Shown here: piece after piece, positions 45,001 to 51,000 of the stretch | How the letters are laid out: the number at the start of each line of letters is the position of its first letter | Position numbering within the stretch: the first letter of the stretch is position 1 | Source of the DNA: an uncultured Planctomycetaceae bacterium | GTDB lineage: Bacteria > Planctomycetota > Planctomycetia > Isosphaerales > Isosphaeraceae | Length of the DNA stretch: 64,000 bases | Assembly: GCA_963833985.1 (NCBI GenBank) | Contig: CAWIAD010000001.1 | Coordinates: 3,072,001 to 3,136,000 of the forward strand | Direction: 5' to 3' | Made by a program: the position numbers

Positions 45001-48000
45001 ACCGCGGCCGAGCTCCAGGCATTGCAGGACCAGTGCGCCGGCGACATGAACATGATGCGGCACTGCCGCCAGTGCCGGGCCGATGCGGTCGGCCTCCTGG
45101 GTGAGGATCGGGGCGCGGAGTTCACGCTCGACAAGATCGATGCCCTCGAGATCGACTACGCGGCCGCCATGGAGACTCGCGCTGCGGTCCACCAGGCGAT
45201 TCGCGCGCAGCTTGGAGCCAGCCTCCCCGCGTCGCCGCCGGCGCTTGCGCAAGTTCCCGGCGCAGCGCGCGCGGTGCTCATGGCGGTCGCCAGCCGGGGC
45301 GGAGGGCTCGTCAACGAGCACTTCGGTCACGCGCGCGAGTTCCTCGTTTACGAGGCTTCGCCCGCGGGCGTCCGGTTCATCGGGCATCGCAAGACTGATC
45401 TGTATTGCGGTGGCGGAGACACGTGCGGCGACGCCGAGTCCACGCTCGCCCAGACCATTCGAGCCCTCGAGGGCTGCGTGGCCGTGCTCTGCTCCAAAGT
45501 CGGCTTTGAACCCTGGGAACACCTGGAGGCCGCCGGCATCACTCCCAATGGGGAGCATGCCCTGGAGCCAATCGAGCAGGCCGTCGCGGCAGTTTACCTG
45601 GCCATGTACCAGGAGGGCCGGCTCATCCAGGCCGCCGGTCACAAGGCCGGTTGAACGCCAGCGCAGGAAAGGATCGATCCATGGCACTGAAGATCAACGA
45701 CCAGTGTGTGAATTGCTGGGCATGCTTCGACGTGTGCCCCACGCAGTCGATCTCGCCGGGCAAGCAGCACGCCCACTTCTTCATCGACCCGCGCAGCTGC
45801 ACCGAATGCGAGGGATCGTTCCAGGACCCCCAGTGTGCCTCGATCTGTCCGATCGAGGGCGCGATTGTCCGCAAAGGGGTTCCGCTCAATCCTCCCGGCT
45901 CGCTCAGCGGTCTCGACCCGGAGTGGGTCCGCCAGAGACTGAGCGGCCAGCCAAGCTGAGTCTCCGGCTGCAAAGCGGCCGCCCGTTGAATCCTGGTACC
46001 AGGGTCCCACGGGCGGTCAGCAAGGAGAGGTTCGATTTCCCCGCCAGCGCTCAGCCGGCCAGCACGGCCTCCGTTTGCGTCCAGGTCGTCCGGTCGTGTG
46101 CGGCGTGGATCAGGTCGGTGATGGTGCACTCGAGGATCTCGATCTGCTTGGACTGGCAATAGCGGCGTTCCTTGGCGGTCGGCTCGGGAATCAGTGCCCA
46201 GCCCGCGGGAGAGTCGGCGTCGACGACGATGTCGGAGAGGATCATCCGCTGCGTGTCGCGTTTCATACGCACGCCGGCGATGAGGTATTGCTTGCCCTGG
46301 CGATGCTGCTTGACGAAGCCCGGCACGGCGAAGCCGCCCATGAGCTCGGTGATGTAGTCGACGAAGTCGGCATCCGAGGCGATATAAGTGGGCTCGGGGT
46401 GGGGAGTGCCCAGGGGCTTGAAGAGAATGGGCAGATCAGGGTTGGCCGAGTCGGGGCCCACCTCGCGGTAGGTCTCGCCGTCATACTCCCAGATGCGGAA
46501 CCGGTAATCCGAGGCCATGATCCGGGCCACGCCCGTCACCAGGGTGTGGCGGCGGTTCGCGTAACGGTGCTGGAGCAGCGCATCGCGATTGGTGTCGACA
46601 ATGTAGGGAAGCCGGAGCGAGCTCAGCCACTCGTGCACCGCGCCTCCGGTCCAGGGAGAGCTGTAGACTCGCGTCAGAAACGATGAGAGGAACCGGCGTC
46701 CCTTCTTGAGCTCGAAGTGCATGGCGGCTCGGGGGAACTCGGTCATCAGCTTGGGGCTGATCGGCCGCCCCTCGGTCATCGCCAGGATGAGCGGCTCGTC
46801 GGCCGCGGGGATCGGTGCGCCCGTCCCGGAGTGGATCACGTCGTCCAGGACCTGCGGGCCGAGGTACGGAATCACCTGGCCGGATCGCAGTCCCGCAAGA
46901 ATATGGTCGAATCGACTGGAAGGCATACGTGTTTCCTTTCTCTGGTGTGGTCGTCTGTCTGCCCCAGCTCCGCTGCCGTGGGGAACTTCCTCGTTTCCGC
47001 CTGAAGCAAGCGACGTGCCAGCCGCCGATCCGGCCCGCACAGGCCGCTCAGGGCGGCAACGAGCACGGCTGGCGCCGTGTCGCACAGCCAGCACCGCGTC
47101 GGAAACCCGACACAGCACCGCCCAATGTGGCAACTCCCACACAATCCGACCCGCGGCTCACGGGATCATCGAGGCTGCCGGCCTCTATTCCAGGCTGCGC
47201 ACGCTTCCTTCGCGAGATGTATTTCGTGTTGGCACGGTCCTTGCGAGGTCCACGTCGGTCGCCCACGACGCTAGCTTCAGCAATGGAGCCGATTGACATC
47301 TACATACTCAGGAGACTTGATCCATGGGCAAGCTTCGGCAATGTGCGATTTACGGCAAAGGCGGCATTGGCAAGTCGACGACCACCCAGAACTTGGTCGC
47401 GGCGCTGGCCGAGGCCGGGCAGAAAGTCTTGATCGTCGGTTGCGATCCCAAGGCCGACTCGACACGACTGATGCTCCACGAGAAGGCCCAGAACACGATC
47501 ATGCACCTGGCGGCTGAGGCCGGCGGTGTAGAAGACCTGGAGCTCGAGATGGTTCTGAAGGTCGGCTACGGCGGCGTGAAGTGCGTGGAGTCCGGCGGCC
47601 CAGAGCCGGGCGTCGGTTGCGCCGGCCGTGGCGTGATCACCGCCATCAACTTCCTGGAGGAAGAAGGGGCGTACGACAAGGACCTGAACTTCGTCTTCTA
47701 TGACGTGCTCGGCGATGTCGTCTGCGGCGGGTTTGCCATGCCCATCCGCGAGAAGAAGGCCCAAGAGATCTACATCGTCGTGTCCGGCGAGATGATGGCC
47801 ATGTACGCGGCCAACAACATTGCCAAGGGCATCGTCAAGTACGCCAACTCGGGCGGCGTGCGGCTCGGCGGCCTGATCTGCAACTCCCGCAACGTGGACC
47901 GCGAGGACGAGCTGATCGAGGCCCTGGCCGAGAAGCTTGGCACGCAGATGATTCACTTCATCCCCCGCGACAACGCCGTGCAGCGCGCCGAGATCCGCCG

Positions 48001-51000
48001 CATGACGGTCATCGAATACGACCCCAAAGCGAAGCAGGCCGACGAGTACCGAGTCCTCGCCCGGAAGATCGAAACCAATACCAAGATGGTCATCCCGACA
48101 CCCATCACGATGGACGAGCTGGAAGCGCTGCTGATGGAGTTCGGCATCCTTGATGAGGAGGACGCATCGATCGTCGGCAAGACCGCGGAGAGTGAAGCGC
48201 TCGCGTGCGTGCCGATCGGCTGAGCCCCAAATTGCGGCCCATCCTCCTCTCCCACCGGCCGTGGCCTGCGACCCAGGCCAGATCCTTCCATCGTCTTCCA
48301 GTCCTCTCCAGCGCCATCCGAGACCCATCCCCGATTTCGCAGGAGCCCTCCATGTCCGTGATGACTCGAGAAGAAACCGAGGCCTTGATTCAAGAGGTGC
48401 TCGAGGTGTACCCGAGCGCCGCCCGCGAGGACCGGGCCAAGCACCTGGCCGCCAACGACCCCGAGCTCGCCCAGTCGAAGAAGTGCATCACCTCGAACAA
48501 GAAATCGCTTCCCGGCATGATGACGATCCGCGGCTGCGCCTACGCCGGCTCGAAAGGCGTCGTCTGGGGACCGATCAAGGACATGATCCACATCTCGCAC
48601 GGTCCTGTCGGCTGCGGCCAGTACTCCCGCGCCGGGCGGCGCAATTACTACATCGGCACGACGGGCGTGAACACGTTCGTCACCATGAACTTCACCTCCG
48701 ATTTTCAGGAGAAGGACATCGTCTTCGGCGGCGACAAGAAGCTCACCGCGCTGATCGGCGAGGTCGAAACCCTCTTCCCGCTCAACAAGGGAATCACGGT
48801 CCAGTCCGAATGCCCGATCGGACTGATTGGCGATGACATCGAGGCGGTTTCCAGGAAGGTCTCGAAGGAGATCGGCAAGCGGGTCGTGCCGGTGCGGTGC
48901 GAGGGCTTCCGGGGCGTTTCACAGTCGCTTGGCCACCACATCGCCAACGACTCGATCCGCGACCACGTCTTCACCGACGGCATCGAGGACCGCGCGACCG
49001 CCTGGCAGCCTTCGGATTACGACGTCTCGATCATTGGCGACTACAACATTGGCGGCGATGCCTGGTCGTCACGCACCTTGCTGGAAGAGATGGGCCTGCG
49101 CGTGGTTGCCCAGTGGTCGGGCGACGGCACGATCGCCGAGCTGGAAAACACGCCCAAGGTCAAGCTCAACCTGCTGCATTGCTATCGCTCCATGAACTAC
49201 ATCTCGCGGCACATGGAGGAGAAGTACGGTATTCCCTGGGTGGAGTACAATTTCTTCGGGCCCACCAAGATCGCCGAGTCGCTGCGGAGCATCGCGCAGC
49301 ACTTCGATGCGTCCATTCAGGAGGGCGCGGAGCGGGTGATCGAGAAGTACCGTCCCGAGTTCGAGGCGGTCGTCGAGAAGTACAAGCCGCGGCTGAAGGG
49401 CAAGCGGGTGATGCTCTTCGTCGGCGGCCTGCGGCCGCGCCACGTCATCGGCGCCTATGAAGACCTGGGCATGGAGGTGGTTGGCACCGGCTACGAATTC
49501 GGCCACAACGACGACTACGACCGCACGCTCAAGGAGATGGGCAACGCCACCCTGCTCTATGACGACGTCACCGGCTACGAGTTCGAGGAGTTCGTCAAGA
49601 AGATCAAGCCTGATCTCATCGGCTCGGGCATCAAGGAGAAGTACATCTTCCAGAAGATGGGCATCCCCTTCCGGCAGATGCACTCGTGGGACTACTCCGG
49701 TCCGTACCACGGCTACGACGGCTTCGCCATCTTCGCCCGCGACATGGACATGACGCTGAACAACCCGTGCTGGAACCAGATCCGGCCGCCCTGGAAGTCA
49801 TGACCCGGCCGCGCACCGCCACGGAACGACGCCTGGAGCAGACGCATACACCCCGAAGGGAGCGAGTCCCATGAGCCAGAATGTGGAAGCAATCAAGCCC
49901 TGCTTTCCCCTCTTTCGCGAACAGGAATACAAGGATAGCCTCGCGCGCAAGAAGGAGCTGTACGAGGAAGCTCACGACGCCGGCAAGATCCGCGAGGTCT
50001 TCGAGTGGACCACGACGGCCGAGTACCAGGAGCTCAATTTCAATCGCCAGGCCCTGACCGTGAACCCGGCGAAGGCCTGCCAGCCTCTGGGCGCGGTGCT
50101 GTGTGCCCTGGGGTTCGAGAAAACCCTCCCCTACGTCCATGGCTCGCAAGGCTGCGTCGCCTACTTCCGGACGTATTTCAACCGCCACTTCAAGGAGCCG
50201 ATCTCCTGCGTTTCCGACTCGATGACCGAGGACGCGGCGGTCTTCGGCGGCCAGAAGAACATGTTCGCCGGCCTGGAGAATGCCCGGGCGGTCTACAAGC
50301 CCGACATGATCGCCGTGAGCACGACGTGCATGGCCGAGGTCATCGGCGACGACCTGAACGCGTTCATCAACAACGCCAGGAAGAACGGGCACGTCCCCGA
50401 GGAGTATCCCGTGCCGTTCGCGCACACCCCGAGCTTCGTGGGCAGCCACACCACGGGCTGGGACAACATGATGGAGGGGATCCTTCGCTTCTTCACGCTC
50501 AACCACATGGAAGGCAAGCGGGCCGGCACCAACGCCAAGATCAATATCGTTCCCGGCTTCGAGACCTACCTGGGCAACTTCCGCGTGATCAAGCGGATGC
50601 TGCGCGAGATGGACGTTCCGTTCACGTTCCTGTCCGATCCGGAAGAGGTGCTCGACACGCCGGCCGACGGCCAGTTCCGGATGTACGCCGGAGGCACCAC
50701 GCAGGAGGAGGTGAAGGACGCTCCCAATTCGTCCGCCACGTTCCTGCTCCAGCCCTGGCAGCTCGACAAGACGGCGAAGTACGTTGAGAACACATGGGGC
50801 CACGAGATCCCGATCACGCACATCCCCATGGGGCTGGAGTGGACCGACCAGTTCCTCATGAAGGTCTCCGAGGTGACCGGCAAGCCCATCCCGGCATCGC
50901 TCGAGAAGGAGCGCGGCCGGCTCGTCGACATGATGACCGACTCGCACACCTGGCTGCACGGCAAGACCTTCGCGCTCTGGGGCGACCCGGACTTCGTGAT

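Follow-up and report, generated by a model that had tools for sequence, protein, structure and literature searches.

Organization of the locus

The window, a 64,000-nt stretch of an uncultured Isosphaeraceae genome (G000), carries a nif cluster in which an open reading frame on the minus strand (46051-46926), hereafter the pnfA-like gene, encodes a protein of 291 amino acids. Its ATG is preceded by AAGGA, and the protein, which contains the motifs PYLGPQVL, DTNRD and FKPLGT, matched the Pfam family SIR2_2 (PF13289) with an E value of 3.6e-7 and 30.8 bits, for a cut-off of 24.5. On one side, nifB (43978-45654; Radical_SAM and Nitro_FeMo-Co families) and fdxN (45651-45959; 4Fe-4S dicluster families) are encoded on the plus strand, convergent with the pnfA-like gene. 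On the other side, nifH (47324-48223, plus strand; Fer4_NifH, E 1.3e-130) is divergent, and the intergenic region spans 397 nt (46927-47323). The open reading frame and Pfam analyses thus agree with the survey's finding, which had described a divergent SIR2_2 gene between nifB-fdxN and nifH with the same spacing. According to Pfam, the remaining structural and cofactor operons (nifD, nifK, nifT at 51490-51702, a nifY/nafY-like gene, nifE, nifN, nifX and a DUF269 gene) occupy 48205-56448 on the plus strand, and a nifA-like activator gene with GAF and sigma-54 interaction domains (62908-63999, plus strand; Sigma54_activat, E 7.6e-68) is cut by the window end. The NifH of the window is 81-91% identical to proteobacterial NifH. 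As for nifB, a TGT-N10-ACA sequence at 44002-44017 suggests that its true start may lie 3' of 43978.

Promoters and putative NifA sites

We found only two exact TGGCAC-N5-TTGC sequences in the 64 kb, for 0.19 expected, and both lie in the region between the pnfA-like gene and nifH, facing outward. The first, TGGCACGTCGCTTGCT (47005-47020, minus strand; score 10/11), is a -24/-12 promoter of the sigma-54 type directed towards the pnfA-like gene and ends 78 nt before its ATG; this spacing, about 75-78 nt from the gene start, is kept in four of the five Isosphaeraceae loci. The second, TGGCACGGTCCTTGCG (47230-47245, plus strand), is the -24/-12 promoter of nifHDK, whose core GGCACG-N4-CTTGC was invariant when the five intergenic regions were aligned. 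A near-invariant block of the same alignment, CGTCGGAAACCCGACA (47097-47112), is a putative NifA upstream activator sequence with one mismatch, and is similar to the TGTCG..CCCGACA sites that precede the gene in proteobacterial loci. The motif scan also detected TGT-N10-ACA, the NifA upstream activator consensus, at 47126-47141; it is kept 195-199 nt from the gene start in four of the five loci. The window contains five such sequences for about 5.4 expected, which is not significant alone; what gives this one weight is that it lies between the divergent promoters. When 85 loci with a homologue were analyzed, a sigma-54-like site scoring at least 9/11 on the sense strand, at most 300 nt upstream, was present in 49, compared to a frequency of 0.032 per 300 nt in the remainder of these loci; at this threshold no such site was detected in the other 36, among them those of Isosphaeraceae genome G002 and Pseudomonas oryzagri (L074).

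Distribution in Isosphaeraceae and nif linkage across phyla

Strong matches to the SIR2-like protein (E ≤ 1e-123) were obtained in five of 121 Isosphaeraceae genomes (G000, G002, G010, G013 and G055), and at E ≤ 1e-5 the only sixth genome was G025, with a paralogue of 27% identity (E 1.9e-8). In all five loci (L081 in G000, L082-L085 in its relatives), the gene is flanked by the divergent nifH and, at its other end, by fdxN-nifB. Compared to G000, identity in the four relatives was 65-87% in the SIR2-like protein and 89-94% in NifH, and NifH itself was detected at E ≤ 1e-60 in 11 of the 121 genomes. These protein searches and locus comparisons reproduced the survey's count of five carriers, each with the gene at the same place, recovered the same eleven nifH-bearing genomes and gave identities close to those reported before (64-86% and 88-94%). 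The other six genomes with nifH lack the gene and possess another nitrogenase lineage (NifH 63-70%, NifD and NifK 32-38% identical), and the proteobacterial-type nif cluster is found in five genomes, all of which have the pnfA-like gene. Because the six non-carriers have a different nitrogenase lineage, the split of five among eleven does not reflect gene loss; the earlier caveat, that absence from five or six of the eleven makes the gene dispensable, does not follow from this distribution.

Beyond this family, the protein had 4591 homologues at E ≤ 1e-5, with identities of 52-59% in Gamma-, Beta-, Alpha- and Zetaproteobacteria. We searched the neighbourhood of 85 of the loci with a panel of 14 nif proteins, to which rnf and fix did not belong. 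A nif gene lay within about 6 kb of the homologue in 68 of the 85, a recurrence that makes the linkage more than chance, and the commonest arrangement was a divergent nifH upstream (52/85). None of the 14 panel proteins was found within 6 kb in the other 17 loci; among five genomes taken from these, four had nifH elsewhere and one gave no nifH at E ≤ 1e-60. The Isosphaeraceae synteny, nifHDK < gene > < fdxN-nifB, is the same as that of proteobacterial clusters.

Relation to pnfA of Pseudomonas stutzeri

The nifH-adjacent protein of P. oryzagri is 55% identical to that of the window, the matches P0051, P0093 and P0102 are common to the lists of both, and its relatives in Stutzerimonas, Azotobacter and Azomonas are annotated as 'SIR2 family protein'. 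The same annotation is given in P. stutzeri A1501 to PST_1325, which adjoins nifH (PST_1326; PMC11332353) and is the gene named pnfA, divergent from nifHDK (Yan et al., 2010, PMC2820453). Judged from these relationships, the gene appears to be the Isosphaeraceae copy of pnfA (PST1325), a diazotroph-specific accessory gene, PST1325 being assigned to the family from where it lies, its size (31.7 kDa), its annotation and its close relatives. The control architecture is also the same, with divergence from nifHDK, NifA/sigma-54-type sites and nifA in the cluster, and we consider it very probable that this is a nif accessory gene of the pnfA family under NifA control.

In P. stutzeri, pnfA was nearly silent in nifA and rpoN mutants, in line with a NifA/sigma-54-dependent expression, and a non-polar pnfA mutant retained 23% of the wild-type nitrogenase activity at 0.5% O2, resembled the wild type under strict anaerobiosis and lost nitrate-supported fixation, with the same nifH mRNA as the wild type (PMC2820453). 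This phenotype was described in one paper, for a single insertion mutant whose complementation appears there as 'data not shown' (PMC2820453). Two further published cases bear on the control of the gene: Rcc03262 of R. capsulatus, a 'SIR2 family protein', was detected in the wild type and not found in a nifA1-A2 deletion (PMC6925177), and ZMO1821 of Z. mobilis was up during N2 fixation (PMC8600466). By analogy, functional orthology with pnfA may be expected in this planctomycete. The novelty claimed for the gene is weakened accordingly, the family having been named and mutated in 2010 and a deacetylase role already proposed (PMC8600466; bioRxiv 10.64898/2026.08.28.747955).

Fold and loss of catalytic motifs

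The AF2 model of the 291-aa protein (pLDDT 94.7, pTM 0.92) adopts a SIR2 fold, with Z scores of 19.7 to KomC and 19.4 to SeThsA, and Foldseek matched it to DSR2, KomC and ThsA at E values of about 1e-8 to 1e-9. In a profile alignment to SeThsA, D-x-N-R-D fell on TNYD and K-P-[LM]-G on K-L-H-G. Where ThsA/KomC have the catalytic His, 120 close homologues had M (60), L (57), H (2) or T (1). The Ser of GAGxS was Leu in all 120, and its second Gly was G in 101, D in 7, Q in 4, E in 4 and another residue in 2, the protein of the window having Q. Asn113, Asp115 and Gly23 were invariant in 120/120, together with many charged residues. In a wider alignment of 41 rows, GAGAS, TNYD and KMHG occurred in the 7 canonical rows only and a His at the critical position in 4 of the 34 non-canonical rows; in the more distant nif-linked clade the catalytic Asn was lost as well. 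Sequence inspection revealed two Cys only and no 4-Cys zinc module. Because the catalytic His and the NAD-phosphate-loop Ser are lost, this sirtuin-fold protein would no longer do sirtuin chemistry, which suggests a non-catalytic action, and we think it quite probable that it is not a sirtuin-type NAD+ enzyme. One lost His is no proof that all catalysis is gone, and so strong a constraint (55% identity across phyla) would be compatible with an enzyme of altered chemistry or a ligand sensor as well.

Predicted NifH complex and proposed role

The NifH dimer was the partner tried in complex prediction. Two NifH chains with the 291-aa protein gave a median score of 0.56 (runs of 0.63, 0.56 and 0.56), against 0.00 for the best of three controls, with a partner pLDDT of at least 85 and an agreement of at least 67% of contacts between runs. 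In the calibration of the tool, 116 of 157 solved complexes attained the mark, as did 2 of 215 mismatches; scores up to 0.60 comprised 18 solved complexes and both mismatches, and by the tool's own reading such a score is wrong more often than not unless the guess was already likely. The model weakly suggests a complex with the NifH dimer, and action through binding of NifH is put forward tentatively, as a possible mode.

We propose that the gene arrived inside a group-I nif cluster taken by these planctomycetes from Proteobacteria. Its own sigma-54 promoter would probably drive it, NifA activating from one or two upstream sites common to it and the divergent nifHDK promoter, and the PnfA-like protein would thus be made together with nitrogenase. 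With a SIR2 fold of the sirtuin/ThsA type working without sirtuin catalysis, the protein may act post-transcriptionally to keep nitrogenase active during respiration with O2 or nitrate, as the P. stutzeri mutant suggests, and the most likely route would be binding of the Fe protein as the NifH dimer. Taken as a whole, a NifA-driven, non-catalytic pnfA copy helping nitrogenase through NifH is an explanation that we hold to be modestly probable. The survey had likewise read the gene as accessory to the nitrogenase system and as brought in with the transferred cluster, a view upheld by the proteobacterial synteny, the sigma-54 promoter with its shared NifA site and the presence of the gene in all five proteobacterial-type clusters.

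Alternative roles

The protein could instead be a nucleotide- or redox-sensing or electron-supply helper, its degenerate pocket binding NAD(H), ADP-ribose or ADP and linking respiration to electron delivery with no direct catalysis on NifH, much like the 'electron transfer or oxygen protection' proposed by Yan et al. (PMC2820453). The Rossmann-type fold with its invariant Asn/Asp motif and Gly23 is consistent with this role, as are the many invariant Arg and Lys (R66, R77, R114, R135, R142, K170, K206, R209, R223, R227 and K252), which suit an anionic ligand, and a mutant phenotype restricted to conditions in which O2 or nitrate serves as terminal acceptor (PMC2820453). However, a cofactor-binding Cys pattern is absent and the pyrophosphate loop is degenerate. 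Nor did the 85 loci, surveyed with the panel of 14 nif proteins, show rnf or fix as a consistent electron-transfer neighbour, and we regard such a helper as doubtful.

A maturation factor, working with NifB-FdxN, NifZ and NifT on P-cluster or FeMo-co steps and not on mature NifH, would fit the partial activity loss and the position next to nifB-fdxN in all five Isosphaeraceae and several proteobacterial loci. On the symbiotic plasmid of R. etli, nifA-nifB-fdxN-nifZ-fixU operons end with a member of the distant clade, as does a nifB...nifZ...nifT operon carried by a Methylococcus plasmid, and the gene comes after nifT in R. capsulatus (PMC6925177) and after nifZ-nifT in Rhodovulum (PMC9412634). 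This position in rhizobia, Rhodobacter and Rhodovulum, behind nifZ-nifT instead of nifH, could point to MoFe-protein maturation. Yet nifH is the commonest neighbour over the 85 loci, and the wild type-like mutant under strict anaerobiosis is unexpected for a general maturation defect (PMC2820453), which leaves this role fairly unlikely.

The survey had favoured a DraT/DraG-like function, with the protein modifying the Fe protein in an NAD+-dependent manner. An ADP-ribosyltransferase or hydrolase of this kind, or an enzyme that deacetylates lysines of NifH, NifA or NifK as proposed for ZMO1821 and for Thalassolituus (PMC8600466; bioRxiv 10.64898/2026.08.28.747955), would agree with the SIR2 fold, the invariant Gly23 and NAD-ribose motif (Asn113 and Asp115) and the weakly supported NifH binding. 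DraT (PF07357) gave no match in G000, in a search that found it in other genomes; Z. mobilis has the gene, with no draT or draG annotated (PMC8594446), and its NifH, NifK and NifA are acetylated (PMC8600466). The survey had noted no Pfam match for the DraT/DraG pair; the DraG family (PF03747) has none in the window and four matches elsewhere in G000. We nevertheless consider a DraT-like or deacetylase role unlikely, because the His and Ser are lost (M, L or T in 118/120 and Leu in 120/120, with Q at the second Gly here) and DraT co-occurs with the gene in three of five proteobacterial carriers tested. The loss of the Asn in the distant clade and the absent zinc module also argue against it. 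Moreover, what the pnfA mutant lost under fixing conditions was activity and not switch-off (PMC2820453), a helper's phenotype in contrast to that of a switch-off enzyme, and the available parts of the cited literature tie no acetylome or ADP-ribosylation change to the gene. Finally, a phage-defence SIR2 NADase hitch-hiking in the nif island is very unlikely: defence proteins (DSR2, KomC, ThsA and Avs5) are its best matches in structure, but PADLOC models gave no match to the protein even at E ≤ 1, the catalytic His is lost, and the 291-aa protein stands alone, with no partner domain or gene, between nif genes on both sides, behind a NifA/sigma-54-type promoter and in a family linked to nif in 68 of 85 loci.

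The SIR2-like gene beside nifH is a pnfA homologue

The SIR2-like gene occupies 46051-46926 on the reverse strand, as an ORF of 291 aa. Since its homologues start at the ATG at 46926 and this codon is preceded by AAGGA, we rejected the longer GTG-started ORF of 363 aa from 47142 as the gene; a sigma-54 site falls inside that extension. The sole Pfam match of the protein was SIR2_2 (PF13289; E 3.6e-7, 30.8 bits for a cut-off of 24.5). On one side, nifB (43978-45654, forward) and fdxN (45651-45959, forward) converge on the gene, and on the other nifH (47324-48223, forward) is divergent, its start lying 397 nt from that of the gene. 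Beyond nifH, we observed in order nifD, nifK, nifT, a nifY/nafY-like gene, nifE, nifN, nifX and a DUF269 gene, then nifU, nifS, a nifV-nifW fusion, a ThiF-family gene and a nifA-like gene (GAF and sigma-54 interaction domains), which the end of the window cuts. The NifH of the window shares 81-91% identity with its counterparts in Gamma- and Betaproteobacteria. The survey's finding of a real gene that is part of the nif system was borne out by this locus, by the genome counts and by the nif linkage of the family.

In P. stutzeri A1501, PST1325 adjoins nifH (PST1326) and was named pnfA, with a 31.7-kDa product (Yan et al., 2010, BMC Genomics 11:11, PMC2820453). According to that report, pnfA homologues are found in diazotrophs only (A. 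vinelandii 72%, Azoarcus 55%, Dechloromonas 54%, Halorhodospira 49%), with a second subfamily at about 20% identity, and the gene runs in the opposite direction to nifHDK, with a -24/-12 promoter and a TGT-N10-ACA motif. Its expression was described as 9.68-fold up under fixation and down to 0.15 after ammonium shock, and as NifA- and RpoN-dependent by qRT-PCR in P. stutzeri. A non-polar mutant was reported to have 23% of the wild-type nitrogenase activity at 0.5% O2, a wild-type-like activity under strict anaerobiosis and no nitrate-supported fixation, while nifH mRNA was unchanged and growth remained Nif+; the authors suggested that pnfA serves electron transfer or protection against oxygen (PMC2820453). 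PST_1325 was later tabulated as a 'SIR2 family protein' (PMC11332353). The literature searched, with partial coverage, gave no follow-up work on pnfA and nitrogenase.

Over residues 3-277, the window protein shares 55% identity with the protein encoded beside nifH in Pseudomonas oryzagri (L074). Near relatives of the latter, from Stutzerimonas, Azotobacter and Azomonas, carry the name 'SIR2 family protein', and the match lists of the two proteins overlap (P0051, P0093, P0102). These points link PST1325 to the family of the window gene. On these sequence grounds we identify the window gene as pnfA, PST1325 being placed via relatives and annotation rather than by direct alignment. The window gene has full-length homology to the family; like PnfA of P. 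stutzeri, its product is a diazotroph protein of about 285-291 aa annotated as 'SIR2 family protein', with cross-class identities of about 50-55%, and it diverges from nifHDK with a -24/-12 promoter and a TGT-N10-ACA motif in the common intergenic region. Unlike the P. stutzeri gene, the window copy has a planctomycete host (Isosphaeraceae) with a transferred cluster, and nifB-fdxN converge on it.

SIR2-like proteins of nif clusters are mentioned elsewhere in print. ZMO1821, a member of the Zymomonas nif cluster, is induced during N2 fixation and was proposed to be a deacetylase (PMC8594446, PMC8600466); a SIR2-2 protein adjoins nifH in 23/25 Thalassolituus genomes, for which deacetylation was suggested (bioRxiv 10.64898/2026.08.28.747955). 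Rcc03262, a 'SIR2 family protein' of R. capsulatus, was detected in the wild type and not in a nifA1-A2 deletion (PMC6925177), and a SIR2-like gene follows nifZ-nifT in Rhodovulum (PMC9412634). The Zymomonas, Thalassolituus, Azotobacter and Pseudomonas annotations can be linked to pnfA, and so, probably, can Rcc03262. Joining these scattered annotations to pnfA is added here. The novelty attached to the gene in the survey did not hold: the family was named and mutated in 2010, its place beside nifH is in print for several Proteobacteria, and the Isosphaeraceae have already been reported to have received group-I nif genes from Gammaproteobacteria, in an arrangement syntenic with that of Pseudomonas stutzeri (PMC9938248).

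Control region between the gene and nifH

Two exact -24/-12 sites (TGGCAC-N5-TTGC) lie in the SIR2-like/nifH intergenic region, one at 47006-47020 on the reverse strand, directed at the SIR2-like gene, and the other at 47230-47244 on the forward strand, directed at nifH. They are the only two in the 64 kb, for 0.19 expected by chance. Between them, at 47126-47141, lies a TGT-N10-ACA motif of the NifA type; this motif alone is not rare, with five occurrences in the window versus 5.4 expected. When the intergenic regions of the five Isosphaeraceae are compared, four retain the exact TGT-N10-ACA, and both the block CGTCGGAAACCCGACA (47097-47112) and the nifH promoter core are near-invariant. In 49 of 85 loci of the gene, the 300 nt upstream of it hold a sense-strand -24/-12 site with a score of 9 of 11 or more; at this threshold, the other 36 have none. 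The density elsewhere in the same loci was 0.032 per 300 nt.

Further TGT-N10-ACA motifs were found, one at 44002-44017, shortly downstream of the first possible nifB start, and two at 56871-56916 upstream of nifU. Since the former falls within the reading frame counted from that start, the annotated nifB start (43978) is probably too early.

The family in Proteobacteria

We found 4591 homologues of the SIR2-like protein at E <= 1e-5, the best 120 of the 4591 being 53-100% identical to it. Just 264 representatives reached E <= 1e-3 in a 50%-identity library, so the family is compact and stands apart. Scanning species genomes yielded more than 532 loci, and the 80 retained all come from Proteobacteria (Gamma, Beta, Alpha and Zeta); the five Isosphaeraceae loci brought the set to 85. 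In 52 of the 85, nifH is divergent upstream of the gene, and 68 have at least one nif gene of a 14-protein panel within about 6 kb, frequently nifE divergent or fdxN-nifB convergent. The other 17 had no nif gene of this panel within about 6 kb; for five genomes out of these, nifH was present elsewhere in four, and the fifth was a MAG without nifH at E <= 1e-60. The arrangement of the window, in which the gene diverges from nifHDK and converges with fdxN-nifB, was also observed in L001, L017, L043, L058 and L067.

A tree was built from 38 SIR2-like proteins: that of the window and, out of the 85 loci, those of the 37 in which the HSPs of both proteins were near full length and free of stops. 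The Isosphaeraceae formed one clade (support 100/99), apart from all 34 proteobacterial rows. Since the backbone of this tree is unresolved, no donor of the transfer can be named.

A distant clade of the same family, 24-31% identical, was found on 71 plasmid records, 54 of them from Rhizobium. On plasmid pB of R. etli CIAT 652, the gene (L110, 6941-7879) is the last of a nif operon with the order nifA-nifB-fdxN-nifZ-putative nitrogen fixation protein (probably fixU/nifT)-gene; on a plasmid of Methylococcus sp. EFPC2 (L111, 6977-7819), the order is nifB ... nifZ ... nifT ... gene. Both the catalytic Asn (the motif reading W-Y-D) and the catalytic His are absent from the members aligned. This rhizobial-type clade probably corresponds to the second pnfA subfamily described in 2010.

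Two nitrogenase lineages in Isosphaeraceae

Strong matches to the SIR2-like protein were observed in 5/121 Isosphaeraceae genomes, namely that of the window (G000) and four relatives (G002, G010, G013 and G055), and NifH at E <= 1e-60 in 11/121, which reproduces the survey's counts. At E <= 1e-5 the gene count becomes 6/121, the sixth genome (G025) giving a weak paralogue match. NifH of the four relatives with the gene is 89-94% identical to that of the window, versus 63-70% in the six nifH-bearing genomes without it (G003, G005, G006, G008, G044 and G061; loci L098-L103). In these six loci, NifD and NifK are 32-38% identical to those of the window, and the order is a compact nifH-D-K-E-N-B where the contig allows (L099, L100, L101). 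Since the NifH, NifD and NifK identities and the gene order differ between the two groups, the Isosphaeraceae hold two nitrogenase lineages. The SIR2-like gene is absent from the six loci of the second lineage and present in 5/5 Isosphaeraceae genomes carrying the proteobacterial-type nif cluster. The proportion of 5 of 11 thus stands as a count, whereas the patchiness comes from the two nitrogenase lineages and not from gene loss, a point added by the present analysis. Among 400 sampled genomes of other Planctomycetota, the gene was found in one (G320), where it also adjoins nifH and nifB.

The paralogue of G025 (G025:C69:5519-6235, L086) is 27% identical, in a genome without nifH. Far away from its nif cluster, the genome of the window carries another SIR2_2 gene, unrelated to the first (G000:C2:2121403-2121762, L108; 585-aa open frame, PF13289 E 6.6e-15).

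Predicted SIR2 fold and degenerate active site

The AlphaFold2 model of the window protein, made from a 41-row alignment, had a pLDDT of 94.7 and a pTM of 0.92. Foldseek matched the model to the SIR2 domains of DSR2, KomC, ThsA and AVAST5 (E 4e-9 to 3e-7, TM about 0.6, 10-15% identity, probability 1.00). With VIA-align, the model gave Z 19.7 for KomC (rmsd 3.1 A over 240 residues), Z 19.4 for SeThsA (rmsd 3.8 A over 255 residues) and Z 10-13 for classical sirtuins. The Pfam match above the gathering score and this predicted fold place the protein in the SIR2 superfamily, on the SIR2_2 branch. A profile of close homologues had no sequence match in the PDB even at E <= 10, and no NCBIfam model matched the window protein. 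A wider-alignment profile reached ThsA, KomC and DSR2 in the PDB (SeThsA and KomC at E about 1e-13), aligning D-x-N-R-D on T-N-Y-D and F-K-P-[LM]-G on Y-K-L-H-G of SeThsA.

At the position of the catalytic His (K-L-H-G of SeThsA), the window protein has Leu. Among the best 120 of the 4591 homologues, counts that are biased towards close relatives because these are the top-scoring ones, the position is M in 60, L in 57, H in 2 and T in 1, and Asn113, Asp115 and Gly23 are present in 120/120. Over the GAGxS loop, the same 120 show P (107) or A (13) at the Ala position, G (101), D (7), Q (4), E (4) or other residues (2) at the second Gly, which is Q in the window protein, and L in all 120 at the Ser position; the phosphate-loop counterpart of the window protein reads G-P-Q-V-L versus G-A-G-x-S. 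The 41-row alignment, which reaches further, contains seven canonical rows (GAGAS, TNYD, KMHG), and the other 34 read K/Q-P-x-G, with x being H in four. The window protein has two Cys and no zinc module. Among the features of an active SIR2 enzyme, the catalytic Asn (T-x-N-x-D) is thus kept, and the catalytic His and the GAGxS loop are not. The lack of the catalytic His, of the GAGxS Ser and of a zinc module makes sirtuin-type chemistry unlikely. The absence of the catalytic His almost throughout the family, which is added here, argues against both the deacetylase idea in print and the survey's DraT-like idea.

Like the sirtuin deacylases (CobB, Sir2Af, SIRT1-7) and the ADP-ribosylating SirTM, the model combines a Rossmann and a small domain (Z 10-13) and keeps Asn-x-Asp; unlike them, the protein lacks the catalytic His and the zinc-binding Cys4, has a degenerate phosphate loop and falls on the SIR2_2 rather than the SIR2 (PF02146) branch. 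With the phage-defence SIR2 proteins ThsA (Thoeris), DSR2, KomC and Avs5, it shares the predicted fold over nearly the entire protein (Z 16-20, 237-255 aligned residues, rmsd 3.1-3.8 A) and the SIR2_2 motifs (GR helix, DxDY, P202). It differs from these NADases in its identity of 12-16%, in M or L for the catalytic His and Leu for the GAGxS Ser, in having no sensor or partner domain and in probably belonging to the nif regulon.

Possible modes of action

With more than 4000 homologues, a reported 77% drop in activity when mutated and no biochemical function assigned so far, pnfA is unusual among nif-regulon genes. This makes it a reasonable target for work on nitrogenase biochemistry and on the transfer of nif clusters into new hosts.

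As to mechanism, we favour a NifA-controlled protein with a sirtuin fold and without sirtuin chemistry, which would sustain nitrogenase activity during respiration, Fe-protein binding being its possible mode of action. A bolder reading, unlikely taken as a whole, is that PnfA proteins are catalytically dead sirtuin-fold proteins which, docked on the dimer of the Fe protein, maintain nitrogenase function during O2 or nitrate respiration. We modelled the window protein with two copies of NifH from our own 38-row alignments, NifH being the sole partner modelled. The predicted complex had a median score of 0.56 (runs 0.63, 0.56 and 0.56; best of three controls 0.00), classed as 'weak support', in a range where most passes are false unless the pairing was already probable. 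The pLDDT of the partners was 85 or higher, and at least 67% of the contacts agreed between runs. In the calibration, the mark was reached by 116/157 solved complexes and 2/215 mismatches, 18 of these solved complexes and both mismatches lying at 0.60 or under. If the bolder reading held, PnfA would be a class of factors protecting or tuning nitrogenase that is widespread but has escaped recognition so far, with thousands of proteobacterial sequences, travelling with group-I nif clusters between phyla. The clade that ends the rhizobial nifB-fdxN-nifZ-fixU operons would then be an offshoot of this invention that has diverged further.

Shethna FeSII, CowN and NifM are small accessory proteins, dispensable for a Nif+ phenotype in some conditions, that sustain nitrogenase under stress or help the Fe protein. 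The PnfA-type protein may resemble them, by analogy and in function only; to our knowledge, they have no sequence or fold relation to the window protein, which has neither the 2Fe-2S site of FeSII nor the PPIase domain of NifM.

The main rivals to the favoured reading are a nucleotide or redox sensor and a maturation helper tied to nifB, nifZ and nifT. For the sensor, an Asn/Asp motif and numerous charged residues that do not vary among the best 120 homologues may allow for ligand binding or altered chemistry, in a protein with a degenerate phosphate loop. In favour of the helper, the distant clade ends operons holding nifB and nifZ; against it, the pnfA mutant keeps a wild-type-like activity under strict anaerobiosis.

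A true NAD+-dependent modifier, which the survey had proposed as a DraT/DraG-like modifier of the Fe protein, is the least likely of the nif-related roles. In some Proteobacteria the gene, like those of DraT/DraG, lies among nif genes or close to them; it would likewise concern the post-translational state of nitrogenase activity, and NifH, its candidate partner, is also that of DraT. The folds, in contrast, are unrelated. No DraT (PF07357) match was found in G000, and a search of five proteobacterial genomes with the gene, made as validation, gave DraT matches in three. As both are present in 3/5 of these carriers, DraT and the SIR2-like gene are not alternatives. The DraG family (PF03747) had four matches in G000 and none in the window, and the SIR2-like protein itself matched neither PF07357 nor PF03747. 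Besides this co-occurrence, what speaks against the DraT-like reading is the mutant phenotype, a loss of activity under fixing conditions and not of switch-off, which is unexpected for a lost switch-off enzyme. An anti-phage SIR2 system (Thoeris, DSR, SIR2-HerA, SIR2-pAgo, Avs5), for all the likeness in fold, is very unlikely, with no PADLOC defence model matching the window protein at E <= 1 and nifB-fdxN and nifH as neighbours.

Other features of the window

Within the nif cluster, a single ORF at 59236-60774 (forward) encodes a homocitrate synthase (HMGL-like and HCS_D2, nifV) with a C-terminal NifW domain. The preceding nifS (57982-59239, forward) is apparently frameshifted near 58720-58733: frame 1 (57982-59193) covers Aminotran_5 positions 1-229 and frame 2 (58562-59239) positions 249-371. 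The cause may be an indel in the assembly, or the gene may be broken. A sufS-like gene is similarly split at 41993-43796 (reverse), the ORF 42681-43796 covering Aminotran_5 positions 1-306 and the overlapping ORF 41993-42820 (reverse) positions 306-371 followed by a SufE domain, a SufS-SufE fusion that is apparently frameshifted. At 32557-33428 (reverse), lytB/ispH lies in two ORFs (33063-33428, profile positions 1-95; 32557-33066, positions 110-266). Three such splits in 64 kb suggest assembly indel errors rather than three pseudogenes. About 20 kb upstream of the nif cluster, we observed a large serine recombinase at 21461-23335 (reverse; Resolvase, Recombinase and Zn_ribbon_recom domains), and the segment that holds it, 18000-24000, has the lowest G+C of the window (0.61-0.63 versus about 0.66).
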